A DNA stretch of 34,749 bases from Patescibacteria group bacterium (GTDB lineage Bacteria > Patescibacteriota > Minisyncoccia > JAHISW01 > Tagabacteraceae). Each line of letters begins with the position of its first letter. The stretch's first letter is position 1. The stretch lies in assembly GCA_018819015.1 (NCBI GenBank), contig JAHJQY010000004.1, forward strand, positions 1-34,749, read 5' to 3'. This document shows, piece by piece, positions 5,759-31,830 of this stretch. The translations under genes and the position numbers were made by a program. The notes under the pieces are model-generated. The model was given only the letters and a program-made list of their open reading frames with translations. It ran no database searches and was not told the DNA's origin.

Positions 5759-6511
5759 TTAGTTGTTGGAAACGCGCAATTCAACTTCTTTAGCAAGTCG
5801 TTCCTTGAAATCTTTAAGTAGTTGGTGGTGCCCGACAGGTAAAAATATCTTTAATTCTTTTTCCCAGCCGTTTTGTTTTGCCAAAAGAGCCAGTAGTTTA
5901 TCTTTCAGGTTTTCTAATTTTGGTACATAGTTTTTCAGTTCGGGATTTCTTAAAATGAAATAGAGGTCAAAGTAGTCTCGGGGCTTGGCTCTGTCCAAAA
6001 GAGCCAAAACTTTTTCAGCGACTAACTTGTTTTCTCCAAGAAAAATAATTGTGTAAGGAGGCAGAAAGTCGCTTTGTATTAAAATGCTGTTACTGCTCAT
6101 TTCTTTTGCTTGCCGAAAAGACACCTGAATTTTTATTTTAGAATTAAAATCAAGCAGTTTTAAATTAACGAGACAAAAATATCCTTCACTTGTTTCTCCT
6201 TCGGTTCCCGCGTTAACAGTTTTTTCACAATTAATGCCTTCTTTTTTAATTTCGTCCAAGGTTGCGTTAATCAATTTGTTTATATCGGCAATGGTGAGTT
6301 CGTTGGCGGCGGAAAAATCCAAGTCCTCTGAAAACCTCGGGCTTTGAAAAACTATTCGCAAGGCCGTTCCTCCCTTGAAAAGCATTTTTTCAGAGCCATT
6401 CTTCTTATAGAGATAAGATAAAAATAAATGCTGGCAGTATTCTCTGGCAATGTTTTCCTCCGATGTTTGGTTCTTGACGCTTAATTCGTTTATGAATTTA
6501 TGAGAAATCAT
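5759..6511 (-). CDS. AbiEii-family nucleotidyltransferase toxin (type IV TA, DUF1814-like)
   Basis: LFKGGTAL, RFSEDLDF, AEKVLAL, RDYFDL motifs; overlaps the upstream antitoxin by 14 bp. Confidence 0.9.
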   Translation of the reverse strand: MISHKFINELSVKNQTSEENIAREYCQHLFLSYLYKKNGSEKMLFKGGTALRIVFQSPRFSEDLDFSAANELTIADINKLINATLDEIKKEGINCEKTVNAGTEGETSEGYFCLVNLKLLDFNSKIKIQVSFRQAKEMSSNSILIQSDFLPPYTIIFLGENKLVAEKVLALLDRAKPRDYFDLYFILRNPELKNYVPKLENLKDKLLALLAKQNGWEKELKIFLPVGHHQLLKDFKERLAKEVELRVSNN

Positions 6512-7118
6512 ATTTTAGGTTTTTTACTAAATCTAAAAATGCCTTATTTTTCCTTAAATGTTTTTTGAAAAAATTAACATAAAAATCAAGTTGTTTTTTA
6601 TCTAGTTTGTTTAAGTTTAGTCGTTCGTTAATTGGTAGTTTTTTTAACGACGCCAAATATAAATAGTCCAACAAGGCTTTTTCTTTGTCTGCCATTCGTA
6701 TTGTTTTATCCCTGATTTTAACGGGCGAATAGCCAAAGAAAAAATTCTTTTTAATTTTGATGTATTGATAAGACTGGTTCTCAAATTCAAAAGTTTTTGG
6801 GGCTTTGGTGGTGGCGGAAATTATCGTATAGACGGTTTCTGGAATTAGGCCGTAATAAGACATTGCTGTTTCAAAAGATATATAAGAGGGCTGGTGCAAA
6901 TAATTGGCAATTTCAAACTTTGCCAGAAGTTCGCTGGCCAGACAGTAGGCGCCCCTTTTGAGCCTTCTAAAAGCCCCTGTTTTTGTATTGTAACTCAAAA
7001 AAGCCCGTGCCGTTTTGGGGTCTACATTAAAAGTCCTTGCGAAGTCTTTTGTAGAAAATATGCTTATTTTACGTAGCGAGAGTGTTTTTTGTACAGAAAT
7101 GAGTTTCAGTTTGTCCAT
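6498..7118 (-). CDS. AbiEi-family antitoxin / transcriptional regulator
   Basis: N-terminal wHTH-like region ending LKRGAY, PSYISFETAMSYYGLIPE, EKALLDYLY; TGCTATAAT at 7142-7150 on the minus strand. Confidence 0.88.
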   Translation of the reverse strand: MDKLKLISVQKTLSLRKISIFSTKDFARTFNVDPKTARAFLSYNTKTGAFRRLKRGAYCLASELLAKFEIANYLHQPSYISFETAMSYYGLIPETVYTIISATTKAPKTFEFENQSYQYIKIKKNFFFGYSPVKIRDKTIRMADKEKALLDYLYLASLKKLPINERLNLNKLDKKQLDFYVNFFKKHLRKNKAFLDLVKNLKYDFS

Positions 7119-8317: not shown

Positions 8318-8944
8318 TCACCGCGCCGCGACTAGCCCGATTACTTTTTTCGCGCCGGCCTTTTTCAAGGCCCGGCGCGCTTCGTTTATCGTGGCGCCGG
8401 TGGTTGAAACATCGTCCAGCACGAAAATTTCCTTGTCTTTTATGAGTTCGGCATTTTTTACCGAAAAAGTCCCTTCAAGATTTTTTAATCTTTTTTGCCT
8501 GTCTTTTATTTCAACCTGGGAAACCGTATGGCGATTTTTATAAAGGACATTAGTCAGGATTTTAACAGACATTATTTCAGACAAGTGCCGGGCGATTAAC
8601 TCTGCTTGATTAAAGCCCCGTTCCCGTAAGCGTTTAGGGGAAAGCGGAATCGGAATAATAACCAATGTTCGAAGTTCAACTTCGAACATTGGGGACAAGC
8701 GGGAAGATAGAAGTTCAGCCAGGGGTTTGGCGGCTCGCCCGGCTTTTTTATATTTCAGCGCTTTGATAAGTTTTTTAATGACGGGCGATTCATAGGACGC
8801 GGCGCCGAAGATATCGGGCTCATTTTTTTCTGTTTCAGGGTACGGCAATTTCGCCGCGCATTTTTGGCATAATAAGATTTTTTCTTTTCCGCAGCCGAAA
8901 CATTTTTCAGGGAAGATTAGGTTTAAAATGGAATTTATCCACAT
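8318..8944 (-). CDS. comF: ComF family competence protein (phosphoribosyltransferase fold); likely start ATG 8944
   Basis: FPEKCFGC..CQKC zinc ribbon, LKY, IPIPL..RERGFNQAE, VLDDVSTTGATI PRT motif. Confidence 0.9.
   Translation of the reverse strand: MWINSILNLIFPEKCFGCGKEKILLCQKCAAKLPYPETEKNEPDIFGAASYESPVIKKLIKALKYKKAGRAAKPLAELLSSRLSPMFEVELRTLVIIPIPLSPKRLRERGFNQAELIARHLSEIMSVKILTNVLYKNRHTVSQVEIKDRQKRLKNLEGTFSVKNAELIKDKEIFVLDDVSTTGATINEARRALKKAGAKKVIGLVAAR
8662..8692. repeat. TCGAAGTT(C/G)AACTTCGA palindrome, copy 1 (inside comF)
   Basis: CCAATGTTCGAAGTT-C-AACTTCGAACATTGG, perfect 15-bp arms. Confidence 0.85.
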
Positions 8945-16968: not shown

Positions 16969-17763
16969 ATGAGTTATAATAAAAACATGCTAACGCATGT
17001 TTTTATTATTGTTTTTGGCGCCGCGGTCGGCAGTTTTTTGAATGTAGTCATTTTTCGGCTTAACAGCGGAGAGTCGTTTTTGGGGGGAGAGTCGCGCTGT
17101 TTTTCCTGCGGCAAAAAACTTAAATGGCGCGAGCTTGTTCCGGTTTTTAGTTTTTTGATTCAAAAAGGCAGATGCCGCGGCTGTGGCAGTAAAATATCTT
17201 GGCAATACCCGGCAGTAGAAATAATAACAGGCGTATTGTTTTTGGCAACTTTTCAACTATCGAAGTTCAACTTCGATAGTTGCGATATTTGTTGGTTTCT
17301 TTATCCTTATATTTGGCTGCTTGTTAGTTTGTTAATAATTATTGCCGTTTATGATTTGCGGCATTTTATAATTCCCAATAAAATTGTTTGGATTTTTAAT
17401 GTTTTGGCGTTTTTAAACTTACTGGCGCACACAAAATATGCGAAACCCGGTTTCGCTTTTTTATCCGGGGTTGTCTTTTTTTTATTTTTTGCGGCATTGT
17501 GGTTTTTGTCAAAAGGAAAGTGGATGGGTTTTGGCGACGCGAAACTGGCTTTGGGTTTGGGTTGGCTGCTGGGCCCGGTTAAAACATTTTCAGCTTTTTT
17601 GATTTCTTTCTGGTTGGGGGCGTTTGTCGGCCTGTTGCTGATCGTTCTTAAAAAGGGCAAATATACCATGATGAGCAGGATTCCTTTCGCGCCGTTTCTT
17701 ATAGCCGGTTCGCTTTTATCGTTTTTTATTAATTTTGATATTTTAAGTTTTTTTAATTTTTAA
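16969..17763 (+). CDS. pilD: Prepilin peptidase / N-methyltransferase (start could be ATG 16987)
   Basis: GSFLNVVI, SRCFSC..GRCRGC, YPAVE, catalytic YDL and GFGDAKL, IPFAPF. Confidence 0.93.
   Translation: MSYNKNMLTHVFIIVFGAAVGSFLNVVIFRLNSGESFLGGESRCFSCGKKLKWRELVPVFSFLIQKGRCRGCGSKISWQYPAVEIITGVLFLATFQLSKFNFDSCDICWFLYPYIWLLVSLLIIIAVYDLRHFIIPNKIVWIFNVLAFLNLLAHTKYAKPGFAFLSGVVFFLFFAALWFLSKGKWMGFGDAKLALGLGWLLGPVKTFSAFLISFWLGAFVGLLLIVLKKGKYTMMSRIPFAPFLIAGSLLSFFINFDILSFFNF
17254..17282. repeat. TCGAAGTT(C/G)AACTTCGA palindrome, copy 2 (inside pilD)
   Basis: CAACTATCGAAGTT-C-AACTTCGATAGTTG, perfect 14-bp arms. Confidence 0.85.
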
Positions 17764-22243: not shown

Positions 22244-22336
22244 CACGATAACCTTGTTTGAAGAAGAATATAAAAAATATCTCTAAGGCAATCTCCTATA
22301 TAAAGTAGTTTCTTAAAGTAAGTAAGTAGTAAAAAA

Positions 22337-22368
22337 GTACAAAATGGACCGGTCGGCCCAATTTGTAC
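22337..22368. repeat. Palindromic direct repeat, left copy
   Basis: GTACAAAATGGACCGGTCGGCCCAATTTGTAC; 30/32 identical to 23066-23097. Confidence 0.9.
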
Positions 22369-22401
22369 CTTGCGGGGAAATTATTATTTTGATAGTATTC
22401 T

Positions 22402-22445
22402 TTTATGTTCAACAACAATAATAATTTATGTTCAACAACAATAAT
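22402..22445 (+). repeat. 21-bp tandem direct repeat (period 23) upstream of the PaaX-like gene
   Basis: TTTATGTTCAACAACAATAAT at 22402-22422 and 22425-22445, identical. Confidence 0.85.
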
Positions 22446-22456
22446 CTAAAAACGTT

Positions 22457-23017
22457 GTGCAAAAAGAAACTAAAATCTTAATAGGAAAAATTATATTGGC
22501 CACAATTGCTTCAGCCGGAATTTTAACAGTAGCAGCCGTGGCGCCCAATGCCTTGCGGGCAATAGATTTATTTCGTGATAAAAAGAAAAGAAAATATCAT
22601 ATGGGTTCTTATGTGAATAGAAATTTTGAAAGACTAAAAGACAGGGGCTTGATTAAATTTGAAAAACGAGACGATAAAAGTTTCGTTCGGCTCACCGAAA
22701 AAGGCCAGCGAGAATTATTAAAATATCAATTGCGGGAGGCGATTATTAAAAAACCGAGATGGTGGGATAAAAAATGGCGGGTTGTTATTTTTGATATTAA
22801 AGAAAGCGCGCGTAATCTTAGAAAGGGCTTAAGGCAGGAATTGGTTAATTTGGGTTTTGTTAAATTACAAAATAGTGTTTGGGTATACCCTTATGAATGT
22901 GGGGAGGTGATAATTATGCTGAAATCTTATTTTTGTTTAGGGAAAGATGTTTTATATATGACGGTTGATAAAATAGAGAATGATAAGTGGTTGAAGCAGG
23001 AGTTTGGTTTGAGTTAG
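22457..23017 (+). CDS. PaaX-like protein: N-terminal hydrophobic helix, wHTH, Cas2-like (PaaX central) domain
   Basis: RLKDRGLI..VRLTEKG wHTH wing; WDKKWRVVIFDI..R..LR..L..LGFVKLQNSVW Cas2-like ferredoxin fold; GTG start. Confidence 0.85.
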   Translation: MQKETKILIGKIILATIASAGILTVAAVAPNALRAIDLFRDKKKRKYHMGSYVNRNFERLKDRGLIKFEKRDDKSFVRLTEKGQRELLKYQLREAIIKKPRWWDKKWRVVIFDIKESARNLRKGLRQELVNLGFVKLQNSVWVYPYECGEVIIMLKSYFCLGKDVLYMTVDKIENDKWLKQEFGLS

Positions 23018-23065
23018 TTGGGTTTTTAATTTAACTAAACCAAAAAGATAAAGAAAATAAAAAAG

Positions 23066-23097
23066 GTACAAAATGGACCGGTCGGCCTAGTTTGTAC
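23066..23097. repeat. Palindromic direct repeat, right copy
   Basis: GTACAAAATGGACCGGTCGGCCTAGTTTGTAC, 729 bp from the left copy. Confidence 0.9.
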
Positions 23098-23232
23098 TTT
23101 ATTAAAGCAAGGCCTTGATTTTGGACTGCTATTTTGCTATTTTGTTTGGAGTAGCAGGGGGTAATGCTTGAACCTTAAAAATTCCTGGAATAAAATTAAA
23201 GATAAAAATGGCCAAGGCCAAGGAGGTAAAAA

Positions 23233-27769: not shown

Positions 27770-29073
27770 TGAATGAATTATCAAAATTTCTCACGGTATT
27801 TTTCGTCTTTTTTTTGCCGATAGGTTTTTTGCTGGCGGAAGTAATTGACCCCGGCAAGGTGCTGGAGCAGCGGGCTCAACTGGAAACGCAATTGGCTGAA
27901 ATAGAAAAGCAGATGGAAGGATATGAGAACCTCATAAAAGGCAAGCAAGTTGAAGCCACTACGTTTGAGCGAGATATTTCTATTTTGAATGCCCAGATAG
28001 ACAAAACAAAACTTGGTATTAAGGCCAGAGACATTGTTGTTGCCGAGTTGAATTCCGGCATAAAAGATTGCGCCGGCGCGATAGATAAATATGAAAAACA
28101 GATAAGCGAAGAAAAGATTTCTTTGTCGGAACTTTTGCGGAGAATGAATGAGATGGATTTTACCAATTTGGTTGAAATAGTTTTGGGGTACGAAACTTTG
28201 TCTGATTTTTTCGCGGATTTTGATTCGTTTGAATCAATACAAAAAGAAGTGCAAGCCTCGCTGTCCGAGATAAAAGACACGCAGAATAAAACGGCGGTTG
28301 AAAAATCTTCGCTTGAAGACCAGAAAACGGAACAGCTTAAATTGCGCGATATTCAAGCTCTTGAAAAGAAAAATCTTGAAAAGAAAGAAACGGAAAAGAA
28401 TAATCTCCTTAAGTCTACCAAGGGGCAGGAAGATGTTTATCAAAAAATATTGAAAGCGCGCCAAAAAGACGCCACGGCCATAAGAAGCCAGCTTTTCGTT
28501 TTGCGCGGTTCAGCCGCCATACCTTTTGAAAAGGCGGTGCAATATGCCAATTTGGCTTTTGAAAAAACCGGCGTCAGGCAAGCTTTTCTTTTGGGGGTTA
28601 TCGCTGAAGAATCAAATTTGGGAGAAAATGTCGGCACCGGCAATTGGAAAATCGATTTGGCTGATTCAAGGTGCGCGAAACAAAGAGATGCTTTTGTTGA
28701 AATTACTCTTGAGTTGGGGCTTAACCCCGATATTTTGCCGGTTTCCAAAAAAGCTTGGTACGGGTATTGCGGTGGCGCCATGGGTCCGGCCCAGTTTATG
28801 CCCACAACGTGGCTGCTTTACAAAAACAAGATATCTCAATTGACGGGCCATAACCCTCCCAGCCCATGGGATCCGCATGATGCTTTTATGGCCTCGGCGT
28901 TTCTTTTGAAAGACAATGGCGCCGCCGCCGGAGGATATACCGCCGAAAGAAGAGCGGCTTTAAGATATTTGGCGGGCGGCAATTGGAACAATCCGGCTTA
29001 CGCTTTTTACGGAGATGATGTTATGGATTTGGCGTTTAAGTACCAGGAGCAGATTGACATAATTTCGCGATAG
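27769..29073 (+). CDS. Exported coiled-coil protein with C-terminal lytic murein transglycosylase (MltB/SLT_2-like) domain
   Basis: Signal/TM helix, long heptad region, AEESNLG (putative catalytic Glu), [21 protein letters not shown]. Confidence 0.82.
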
Positions 29074-29797
29074 ATTCGGCAATTTTCTCAAAATCTCCTC
29101 CATTCAAAATCTTTTCTATATTGTGCCAGCTTTTTTTGAAGCGGTGGTCTGTAATGCGGTCTTGCATAAAATTATAAGTGCGGATTTTTTCCGACCGGTC
29201 TTGCGTTCCTATTTGCCCTTTTCGCAAATCGCCAATAGATTTAATTTTGGCTTCTTGGGCGGCCTGAATAAGTTTAGCCCTTAGAACGGTCATGGCCTCT
29301 TCTCTGTTTCTTTGCTGGCTTCTTTCACTTTCACTTTTGACAACCAGGCCGGTGGGTTTATGCGTAATGCGAACGGATGTTTCAACTTTGTTGACATTTT
29401 GGCCGCCTTTTCCTCCCGCGCGCGCGAATCCTATTTCAATATCTTCCGGGCGGATTTCAATGTCTCCTCCTTCATTTTCATACAGCGGCAAAATTGAAAC
29501 CGAGGCTGTGGAAGTATGAATGCGCCCGGATTTTTCCGTGGCCGGTATTCTTTGCACGCGATGGACTCCGGATTCGTGCCGGAGTTTTTTGTAGGCCTCG
29601 TTGTTTTTTATTTTAAAAACCACCTCTTTTATTCCTCCGAGGTCGTCTTTTGACTGGCTGATTAGTTTTGTCGGCCAATTTTGCGATTCCGCGTATCTGG
29701 AATACATTTTATAAAGACTGTCGGCAAAAAGCGCGGCTTCTTTGCCCCCGGCTCCGGCGCGGATTTCCATGATAATTCCTTTTGATTCCGTTTCCAT
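29036..29797 (-). CDS. prfA: Peptide chain release factor 1-like, lacking N-terminal domain 1
   Basis: [29 protein letters not shown] (PxT), [10 protein letters not shown] (GGQ), [14 protein letters not shown]; only 253 aa. Confidence 0.85.
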
Positions 29798-31794: not shown

Positions 31795-31830
31795 CCCCAA
31801 CTGTTCGAAGTTGAACTTCGAACATTGGGG
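31795..31830. repeat. TCGAAGTT(C/G)AACTTCGA palindrome, copy 3 (intergenic)
   Basis: CCCCAA-C-TGTTCGAAGTT-G-AACTTCGAACA-TTGGGG; nearly identical to the reverse complement of the comF copy. Confidence 0.85.

Follow-up and report, generated by a model that had tools for sequence, protein, structure and literature searches.

The phenylacetyl-CoA-responsive repressor PaaX (structures 8a39 and 3l09) consists of a winged helix-turn-helix, a linker with a WD-KW motif, a Cas2-like central domain, and a C-terminal ligand domain. It binds an operator whose inverted half-sites stand far apart, TGATTC-N27-GAATCA, and PaaX has also been found to repress its own promoter (PMC9493321). A truncated member of this family, referred to here as mini-PaaX, is encoded on a 34,749-nt stretch of DNA from a Patescibacteria group bacterium (GenBank assembly GCA_018819015.1, contig JAHJQY010000004.1, positions 1 to 34,749; henceforth the window), where its gene is bracketed by two nearly identical palindromes. 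The arrangement recurs around homologous genes, and the reading favored here, with a probability of roughly 0.6, is that of an autoregulated, probably membrane-anchored mini-PaaX repressor flanked by two copies of its own predicted operator. Mini-PaaX thus looks like one of many orthogonal regulator/operator pairs that make up a large family in Patescibacteria, i.e., a self-regulating gene rather than a jumping one.

Comparison with described systems

Mini-PaaX resembles PaaX in having the winged helix followed by the WD-KW linker and the Cas2-like domain, and its predicted sites, with boxes about 29 bp apart and an overlap with the −35 region, fit the widely spaced PaaX operator in their sequence geometry. 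Unlike PaaX, it has no C-terminal ligand domain, carries an extra N-terminal hydrophobic helix and a Cas2-type Asp at the end of β1, and has no paa genes nearby. The sites differ as well, since those of mini-PaaX share an invariant CGRYCG and occur on both sides of the gene, and many orthogonal paralogs can be found in a single genome.

Other systems offer partial parallels. The λ CI gene also lies between its own operators, OL and OR, one set of which covers its own promoter, and it provides a precedent for looping autoregulation. Of course, CI has an unrelated fold, each of its operators is made up of three subsites, and it governs lytic promoters, whereas mini-PaaX has a single site on each side and is only proposed to loop. 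Repetitive extragenic palindromes (REPs) and the domesticated tyrosine transposase genes that they flank (RAYTs) are similar in that a single gene is flanked by family-specific palindromes, with each subfamily having its own. In contrast to RAYTs, mini-PaaX lacks the HUH/Y1 transposase fold, its sites are not dispersed in the tens to hundreds of copies typical of REPs (one site type has three copies in the 752-kb genome CP011215), and their conservation profile fits a protein site on double-stranded DNA instead of a hairpin. Finally, CRISPR Cas2 shares the ferredoxin-like β-α-β-β-α-β domain with an Asp closing β1, but mini-PaaX scores below the TIGR01573 cutoff, is fused to a winged helix, and has neither cas1 nor a CRISPR array in the window. 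A search of the literature on PaaX/Cas2-like proteins in bacteria of the candidate phyla radiation did not turn up any account of the family or its layout.

A palindrome pair around a single gene

A 32-nt palindrome, GTACAAAATGGACCGGTCGGCCCAATTTGTAC, occurs at positions 22337–22368 of the window with no mismatches to the search pattern, and a second copy at 23066–23097 has two, leaving 30 of the 32 positions identical. No third match was found when all 34.7 kb were searched at up to three mismatches, and 100 dinucleotide-preserving shuffles of the window produced none at all. The repeats bracket a single open reading frame (ORF) at 22457–23017. An earlier note on this DNA had described just such a pair of 32-bp repeats around a PaaX/Cas2-like ORF, and the pattern search agrees with it. 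The GTACAAA..TTTGTAC ends given in that note are present, as is the octamer GACCGGTC (22347–22354), but the octamer, given there as an inner palindrome, is not the center of the repeat: it sits 2 nt off center and is not conserved at homologous loci, whereas CGGTCG lies exactly in the middle and is the motif that the family retains.

Counted outward from that core (15 + CGGTCG + 15), each site extends to 36 bp, and neither is assigned a strand. The upstream site spans 22335–22370, with its core at 22350–22355, a left box of AAGTACAA, and a right box that is the complement of AGGTACAA. The downstream site spans 23064–23099, with its core at 23079–23084 and boxes of AGGTACAA and the complement of AAGTACAA.

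Flanking sites across the family

The earlier note had suggested asking whether homologs possess their own flanking palindrome pairs, and many of them do. For 80 homologous loci, all taken from species representatives in GTDB, the 350-nt flanks on the two sides of the gene were compared with each other for the best ungapped match; scores of 16 or more were obtained at 49 of the 80 loci but in only 3 of 237 random controls of the same geometry. The matches are palindromes of 30–45 nt whose arms are specific to the locus and whose center is always CGRYCG, mostly CGACCG or CGGTCG, in some cases CGATCG, and once CGGCCG. Under a strict threshold, 72 loci could be evaluated, with both sites at 39, only the upstream site at 7, only the downstream site at 12, and neither at 14.

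These palindromes are also tightly associated with the gene. Within 610 kb, 72 of the 78 CGRYCG-centered palindromes fell within 300 nt of it (35 upstream and 37 downstream), while 152 kb from 19 Patescibacteria gatA loci without the gene contained none and 574 kb from other bacteria contained one. A distant homolog on a contig of 45% GC is flanked as well, with CCGGCCGG at the center. A metagenome scan for GTACAAA-N5-CCGRYCGG-N5-TTTGTAC recovered three contigs, none of them orthologous to the window; a distant homolog on one was flanked. In one locus (L037, about 1980–2230), three CGRYCG-centered sites are stacked upstream of the gene, and another (L030) has two there; some members therefore have multi-site operators.

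The family itself is large. A word-indexed search returned 636 homolog matches, and all 120 of the homologs listed carried PF20803, while an exhaustive profile search recovered 508 clusters (50% identity) at E ≤ 1e-30 and 2697 at E ≤ 1e-10. Lengths cluster at 185–200 aa, with nearly all members coming from Patescibacteria/Paceibacteria. Genomes often have several paralogs, with at least six in STC_102 and five each in H52-bin079 and KR13_S3.mb.34. The neighboring genes are varied housekeeping genes, synteny groups are small, and no conserved partner gene was seen across the homologous loci. Exact-protein look-ups of the window protein and of P0001 returned no contigs.

Anatomy of the site

When 57 upstream/downstream site pairs were aligned on their centers, the CG..CG core was fixed and the base adjoining the center was well kept. 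In the inner spacer, 2–6 nt from the core, 18–28% of positions differed between the two copies and 27–35% were non-complementary. The outer box, 8–15 nt from the core, proved to be the best-kept part, with 2–9% differing between copies and 5–12% non-complementary, and conservation faded at about position 16 from the center. The layout can thus be written as box(8)-spacer(6)-NCGRYCGN-spacer(6)-box(8), a unit of about 36 bp with its box centers some 29 bp apart. Because complementarity is weakest near the center and strongest 8–15 nt away from it, the palindrome is predicted to be a tripartite protein site on duplex DNA, with the wide spacing of PaaX operators, and not a hairpin.

Of 116 sites, about 88% have AC or GT as their central dinucleotide, 13 have AT, and 1 has GC. 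A switch between AC and GT from one copy to the other is seen at 15 of 58 loci, while the asymmetries of the arms stay in direct register. Avoidance of restriction sites was considered as a source of the AC/GT excess and rejected, the depletion of GATC (0.72) and GGCC (0.79) being too mild.

Coupling of the recognition helix to the outer boxes

The most variable part of the protein is the recognition-helix segment (residues 47–60), with a mean column entropy of 2.45 bits compared with 1.23 bits in the Cas2-like domain. Classes of outer box pair with classes of helix: TTACCTAA with KYSIN[TD]S, ACTCTTAAAC with YY[VI]KSV, [CG]TACAC with K[KG]YLNN[SA]IG, and TTAGCAC with YY[IV]NKV. In a partial Mantel test, which removes phylogenetic non-independence only in part, box distance correlated with helix distance after Cas2-like-domain distance had been controlled for (r=0.19, p=0.0005), while the reverse test of box against Cas2-like domain gave r=0.01 (p=0.37). 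Variation in the outer boxes, then, tracks that of the recognition helix rather than that of the Cas2-like domain.

Individual comparisons illustrate the coupling. The homolog P0002 shares 84% of its residues with the window protein, yet its helix matches at only 7 of 14 positions, and its boxes are ACTATATA as opposed to GTACAAA. P0004, at 78% identity, has a helix of YVNRSIMRL (YVNRNFERL in the window protein) and boxes of the shared type, [GA]TACAAAA. Moreover, P0004 and P0008 occupy the same neighborhood, between genes for an aminoacyl-tRNA synthetase and an M16 peptidase, and differ in both helix and boxes; specificity has therefore changed in place, along with both flanking sites.

Position relative to the promoter

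Upstream site centers lie a median of 47 nt before the start codon (interquartile range 36–60), and downstream centers a median of 40 nt after the stop codon. In the homologs, a −10-like hexamer peaks 33–36 nt past the upstream center, which places the right-hand box of that site at −35. In the window, a promoter-like TTGCGG-17-TAGTAT (22370–22398, plus strand) abuts the upstream site; it was read by eye and was not called by a consensus promoter and terminator scan, whose matches in this region were at chance level.

The distance from site to start codon in the window is 105 nt, having been stretched by a duplication in the leader of the gene. This perfect 23-nt tandem duplication (22402–22445, plus strand), TTTATGTTCAACAACAATAATAA, is present in 1.9 copies and, at a Tandem Repeats Finder score of 88, is the top-scoring tandem repeat of the window. 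It could also encode an upstream ORF of 14 codons.

Paired sites are separated by a median of 672 bp from center to center, with no helical phasing of the spacing. The downstream copy, with no promoter signal comparable to that of the upstream one and a preference for co-directional next genes, suggests looping or a read-through block rather than an ordinary operator.

Sites elsewhere are few and promoter-proximal. In the complete 752-kb genome CP011215, one type of site (that of L045) occurs three times, with two copies flanking the gene and the third in an island of 1.75 kb that separates rplE from rpsN (L171, 400–2150), where it lies upstream of a small minus-strand ORF. The same island has a high-GC, apparently frameshifted minus-strand ORF and an ORF of 101 aa. 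In locus L070, an L039-type site precedes an SPFH-like gene by about 200 nt, and in L021 an extra site precedes a gene for a membrane protein. L070 also contains two identical 95-aa ORFs (607–894 and 1582–1869), about 975 bp apart, as an apparent tandem segmental duplication just upstream of the extra site and the SPFH-like gene. Rfam searches of L171, L038, L070, and L021, i.e., the loci with extra sites or islands, returned nothing relevant.

The protein

The mini-PaaX gene (22457–23017, plus strand) has a GTG start and encodes 186 aa. It matches PaaX_M (PF20803) with an E-value of 9.1e-19 and 67.8 bits, well above the cutoff of 24, whereas its winged-helix and Cas2 Pfam matches are weak. 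The AlphaFold (AF2) model, built from a 24-sequence alignment, has a predicted local distance difference test (pLDDT) score of 81.6. It comprises an N-terminal hydrophobic helix (residues 2–20), a helix at 25–39, the recognition helix (49–62), a β-hairpin wing (66–79), a helix at 81–94, and a ferredoxin-like β-α-β-β-α-β (Cas2-like) domain at 107–182.

In Foldseek searches of the model, E. coli PaaX (8a39) was the top PDB match (E 2.6e-5 over 185 columns), followed by the PaaX-like 3l09 and 3kfw (Rv0674). Cas2 and PadR/MarR-type winged helices matched individual domains, and the winged-helix centromere binders AspA and TubR also appear among the structural neighbors. A profile search against PDB sequences aligned residues 51–144 collinearly with PaaX, WD-KW linker included, although the match was weak. 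PaaX_C is absent according to Pfam, and the chain ends at residue 186. The window protein is thus a truncated PaaX-family member with a winged helix and a Cas2-like domain, putatively for dimerization, but without the C-terminal domain of PaaX.

The PaaX equivalog model TIGR02277 scores 49.6 bits, far under its cutoff of 264.55, and the cas2 model TIGR01573 scores 23.5 bits, just under 24.5, with only β1-α1 aligned; PADLOC likewise gave weak Cas2 matches only. It is because scores fall so near the cas2 cutoff that homologs have been auto-annotated as Cas2. The Cas2 resemblance extends to D113, an invariant Asp at the end of β1 in the motif FDI, which PaaX lacks, and E116 of the same domain is invariant too. 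An APN motif is invariant as well, and the hydrophobic helix at the N terminus is likewise kept across the family. Mini-PaaX is probably anchored in the membrane through this helix, both flanks of which are basic.

A model for autoregulation

The flanking sites, their conservation profile, the covariation of helix and box, the promoter overlap, and the PaaX fold with its operator geometry together lend good support to a possibility raised in the earlier note, namely a regulator whose own binding sites lie on either side of its gene. From these observations we infer binding, the sign of regulation, looping, and the domain that reads the center. A mini-PaaX homodimer would form through the Cas2-like domain, placing two recognition helices to read the paralog-specific 8-bp outer boxes, some 29 bp apart from center to center. 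A conserved part of the protein, with the Cas2-like domain or the wing as candidates, might read the invariant CGRYCG as two CGR half-sites. Bound to the upstream site, the dimer would cover the −35 of its own promoter and produce negative autoregulation, while the downstream site, about 670 bp away, could serve as a looping partner, as a roadblock to read-through, or as both. The paralogs of one genome would stay orthogonal through joint changes of the helix and both sites, and the two site copies could be kept alike by gene conversion. Such a symmetric, self-contained cassette would be expected to tolerate inversion.

Several observations weigh against this model. Simple recognition by a symmetric dimer does not explain the AC/GT switching of the center, and a conserved center with variable arms is the reverse of what is seen in most operators. 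The Cas2-like domain is conserved far beyond the needs of dimerization (1.23 bits, compared with 2.45 bits in the helix segment) and retains the β1 Asp that PaaX lacks, while the covariation was corrected only incompletely for shared ancestry. The downstream site is present at 12 of 24 loci with a convergent next gene but at 36 of 45 with a co-directional one, and no promoter signal comparable to that of the upstream site was found at it. Lastly, almost all sites lie around their own gene, which makes for a regulator with no obvious output.

Alternative explanations

The earlier note had proposed a minimal mobile or excisable unit with attL/attR-like arms, in which the protein or a host enzyme would cut and rejoin DNA at CGRYCG so that the 0.73-kb unit could leave as a circle and then reintegrate or invert. 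Several genomic contexts speak in favor of such a unit. Close homologs occur in unrelated neighborhoods, genomes have many paralogs, and the gatA-188aa gene pair is conserved in 19 relatives with no mini-PaaX gene after it, although the downstream genes differ there and an empty site is therefore not definable. Cassettes are even found within ribosomal-protein operons: in the metagenome-assembled genome STC_102 (L038, 3900–6090), a 2.3-kb insert between rpsG and fusA holds a mini-PaaX cassette, a high-GC 208-aa ORF without a Pfam match, and an array of three CGGTCG-centered sites, one of which has the arms of a paralog (L011), and the rplE/rpsN island of CP011215 is related. The downstream site of that cassette is a chimera of two arm types, the only clear exception to the rule that arms are not hybrid. 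Single-gene inversions within conserved flanks were seen three times (L061 versus L005/L046, between dnaE and rnhB; L057 versus L022/L024; and L058 versus L026/L039, the last relative to the gene map), and both the asymmetric central dinucleotide and the invariant D113 and E116 could be accommodated. Nevertheless, the pattern that gave rise to the proposal does not hold up. The cross-matching of the outer arms in the window comes down to a single A/G position 14 nt from the core; over 16-nt arms, a hand count gave 5 cross mismatches against 7 within-site ones, and the inner positions cross-match no better than they self-match. Across 58 loci, positions with a 2:2 split of the four half-arms followed the direct pattern 51 times, the within-site (compensatory) one 20 times, and the cross pattern expected of attL/attR only 14 times, which makes the last the rarest. 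No recent copies of the cassette were found among the compared loci, and the DNA similarity of paralogs and orthologs stops at the coding sequence. Several synteny groups hold the gene in place across 50–70% protein identity, and positional orthologs have switched helix and boxes where they stand. An excised circle would find no matching target, the arms being specific to each paralog, and the inner spacer is poorly conserved, unlike a crossover region. No solo sites occur in the 152 kb around the 19 related gatA loci, the closest GatA there being only 58% identical to that of the window. As the earlier note had also stated, there is no integrase or transposase in the window annotation, nor any Cas1 or CRISPR array; Pfam annotation covered 28 of the 58 window ORFs of at least 90 aa, namely those not nested in a longer opposite-strand ORF. 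A mobile cassette is thus quite improbable, and excision is unsupported as a general mechanism.

The palindromes could conceivably act as nucleic acid structures instead, either as bidirectional intrinsic terminators or mRNA-end stabilizers that insulate the gene, or as RNA or single-stranded DNA hairpins whose loop is recognized by the Cas2-like domain. Consistent with this, complementarity and a short central "loop" persist despite the variation of the arms, many sites have an A-run before and a T-run after them, folding of the window copies gives −12.8 and −13.6 kcal/mol (z-scores of −2.5 and −2.8), and downstream sites are more often present at loci whose next gene is co-directional. Pairing, however, fails in 27–35% of cases right beside the supposed loop and is best 8–15 nt away, the reverse of a stem that closes a loop, and the loop on a given strand reads GACC, GGTC, or GATC across loci and even within one locus. 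The −10 lies downstream of the upstream site, so that this copy is probably outside the gene's own transcript, and the first window copy has no T-tract. The covariation of helix and box also points to read-out of double-stranded DNA. A hairpin function is highly improbable. Somewhat less so, yet still unlikely, is a structural tether, in which each paralog would bind its own flanks and use its N-terminal helix to attach that locus to the membrane, so that the paralogs form a set of orthogonal anchors, or would mark the locus with a nucleoprotein complex for some other process. The family-wide hydrophobic helix and APN motif, the near confinement of sites to their own flanks with correspondingly little regulon, the scatter of several orthogonal paralogs around each genome, and structural neighbors such as AspA and TubR are all in its favor. 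Against it, membrane topology is a prediction and the helix is basic on both flanks, the overlap with the promoter is just what would be expected of autoregulation, and the few additional sites lie close to promoters.

Some recombination at the sites over evolutionary time is real, as the three inversions and the chimeric L038 site attest. Inversions are to be expected of two palindromic repeats, and under the autoregulation model a cassette that brings along symmetric control sites of its own would tolerate them. Whether the protein itself takes part is a separate matter. The Cas2-like domain is the sole candidate nuclease among the annotated ORFs of the window, and the asymmetric center, the strong conservation of that domain, and the retained Asp leave room for a catalytic role at the center. 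The inversions, the chimeric site, and the Cas2-type Asp give a small chance of some recombination or nuclease activity in mini-PaaX. It would be improbable, but of considerable interest, if the domain nicked or cut at the asymmetric CGRYCG to bring about inversion, flipping of the center, and exchange of sites, since this would amount to a minimal Patescibacteria module for recombination or mobility made of one protein and a palindrome.

Significance for Patescibacteria

Patescibacteria have tiny genomes with few recognizable regulators, and the control of their transcription is almost uncharted. A family of 508 clusters, often with several members per genome and now labeled as Cas2 or hypothetical, merits attention, and its recognition would correct a widespread misannotation. 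As the cognate DNA site of each member can be read from the flanks of its gene, hundreds of natural protein–site pairs would become available for deriving a recognition code, and the family could also be a source of orthogonal repressor/operator parts. The asymmetric center and the inversions, for their part, offer a concrete test of a Cas2-like domain acting on DNA outside of CRISPR.

Other features of the window

The remainder of the window is ordinary Patescibacteria chromosome, encoding SecA, MurB, an AbiE toxin–antitoxin pair, a type IV pilus cluster, LigA, GatCA, an aldolase, ribosomal proteins, and NusB, and Rfam detected only tRNAs in it. The AbiE pair, an AbiEii nucleotidyltransferase toxin with an AbiEi antitoxin (type IV toxin–antitoxin/abortive infection), occupies 5759–7118 on the minus strand, beside tRNA genes. 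At 29036–29797, also on the minus strand, an RF-1/PCRF ORF of 253 aa matches PCRF from profile position 97, in keeping with the programmed +1 frameshift typical of prfB. Another palindrome family, TGTTCGAAGTT[CG]AACTTCGAACA, unrelated to the first, was found at 8662–8694, 31796–31830, and 17257–17285. One of its copies lies within a ComF-like ORF, one follows directly after tRNA-Thr, and a weaker one lies within the prepilin peptidase gene; the first two copies are 94% complementary to each other.

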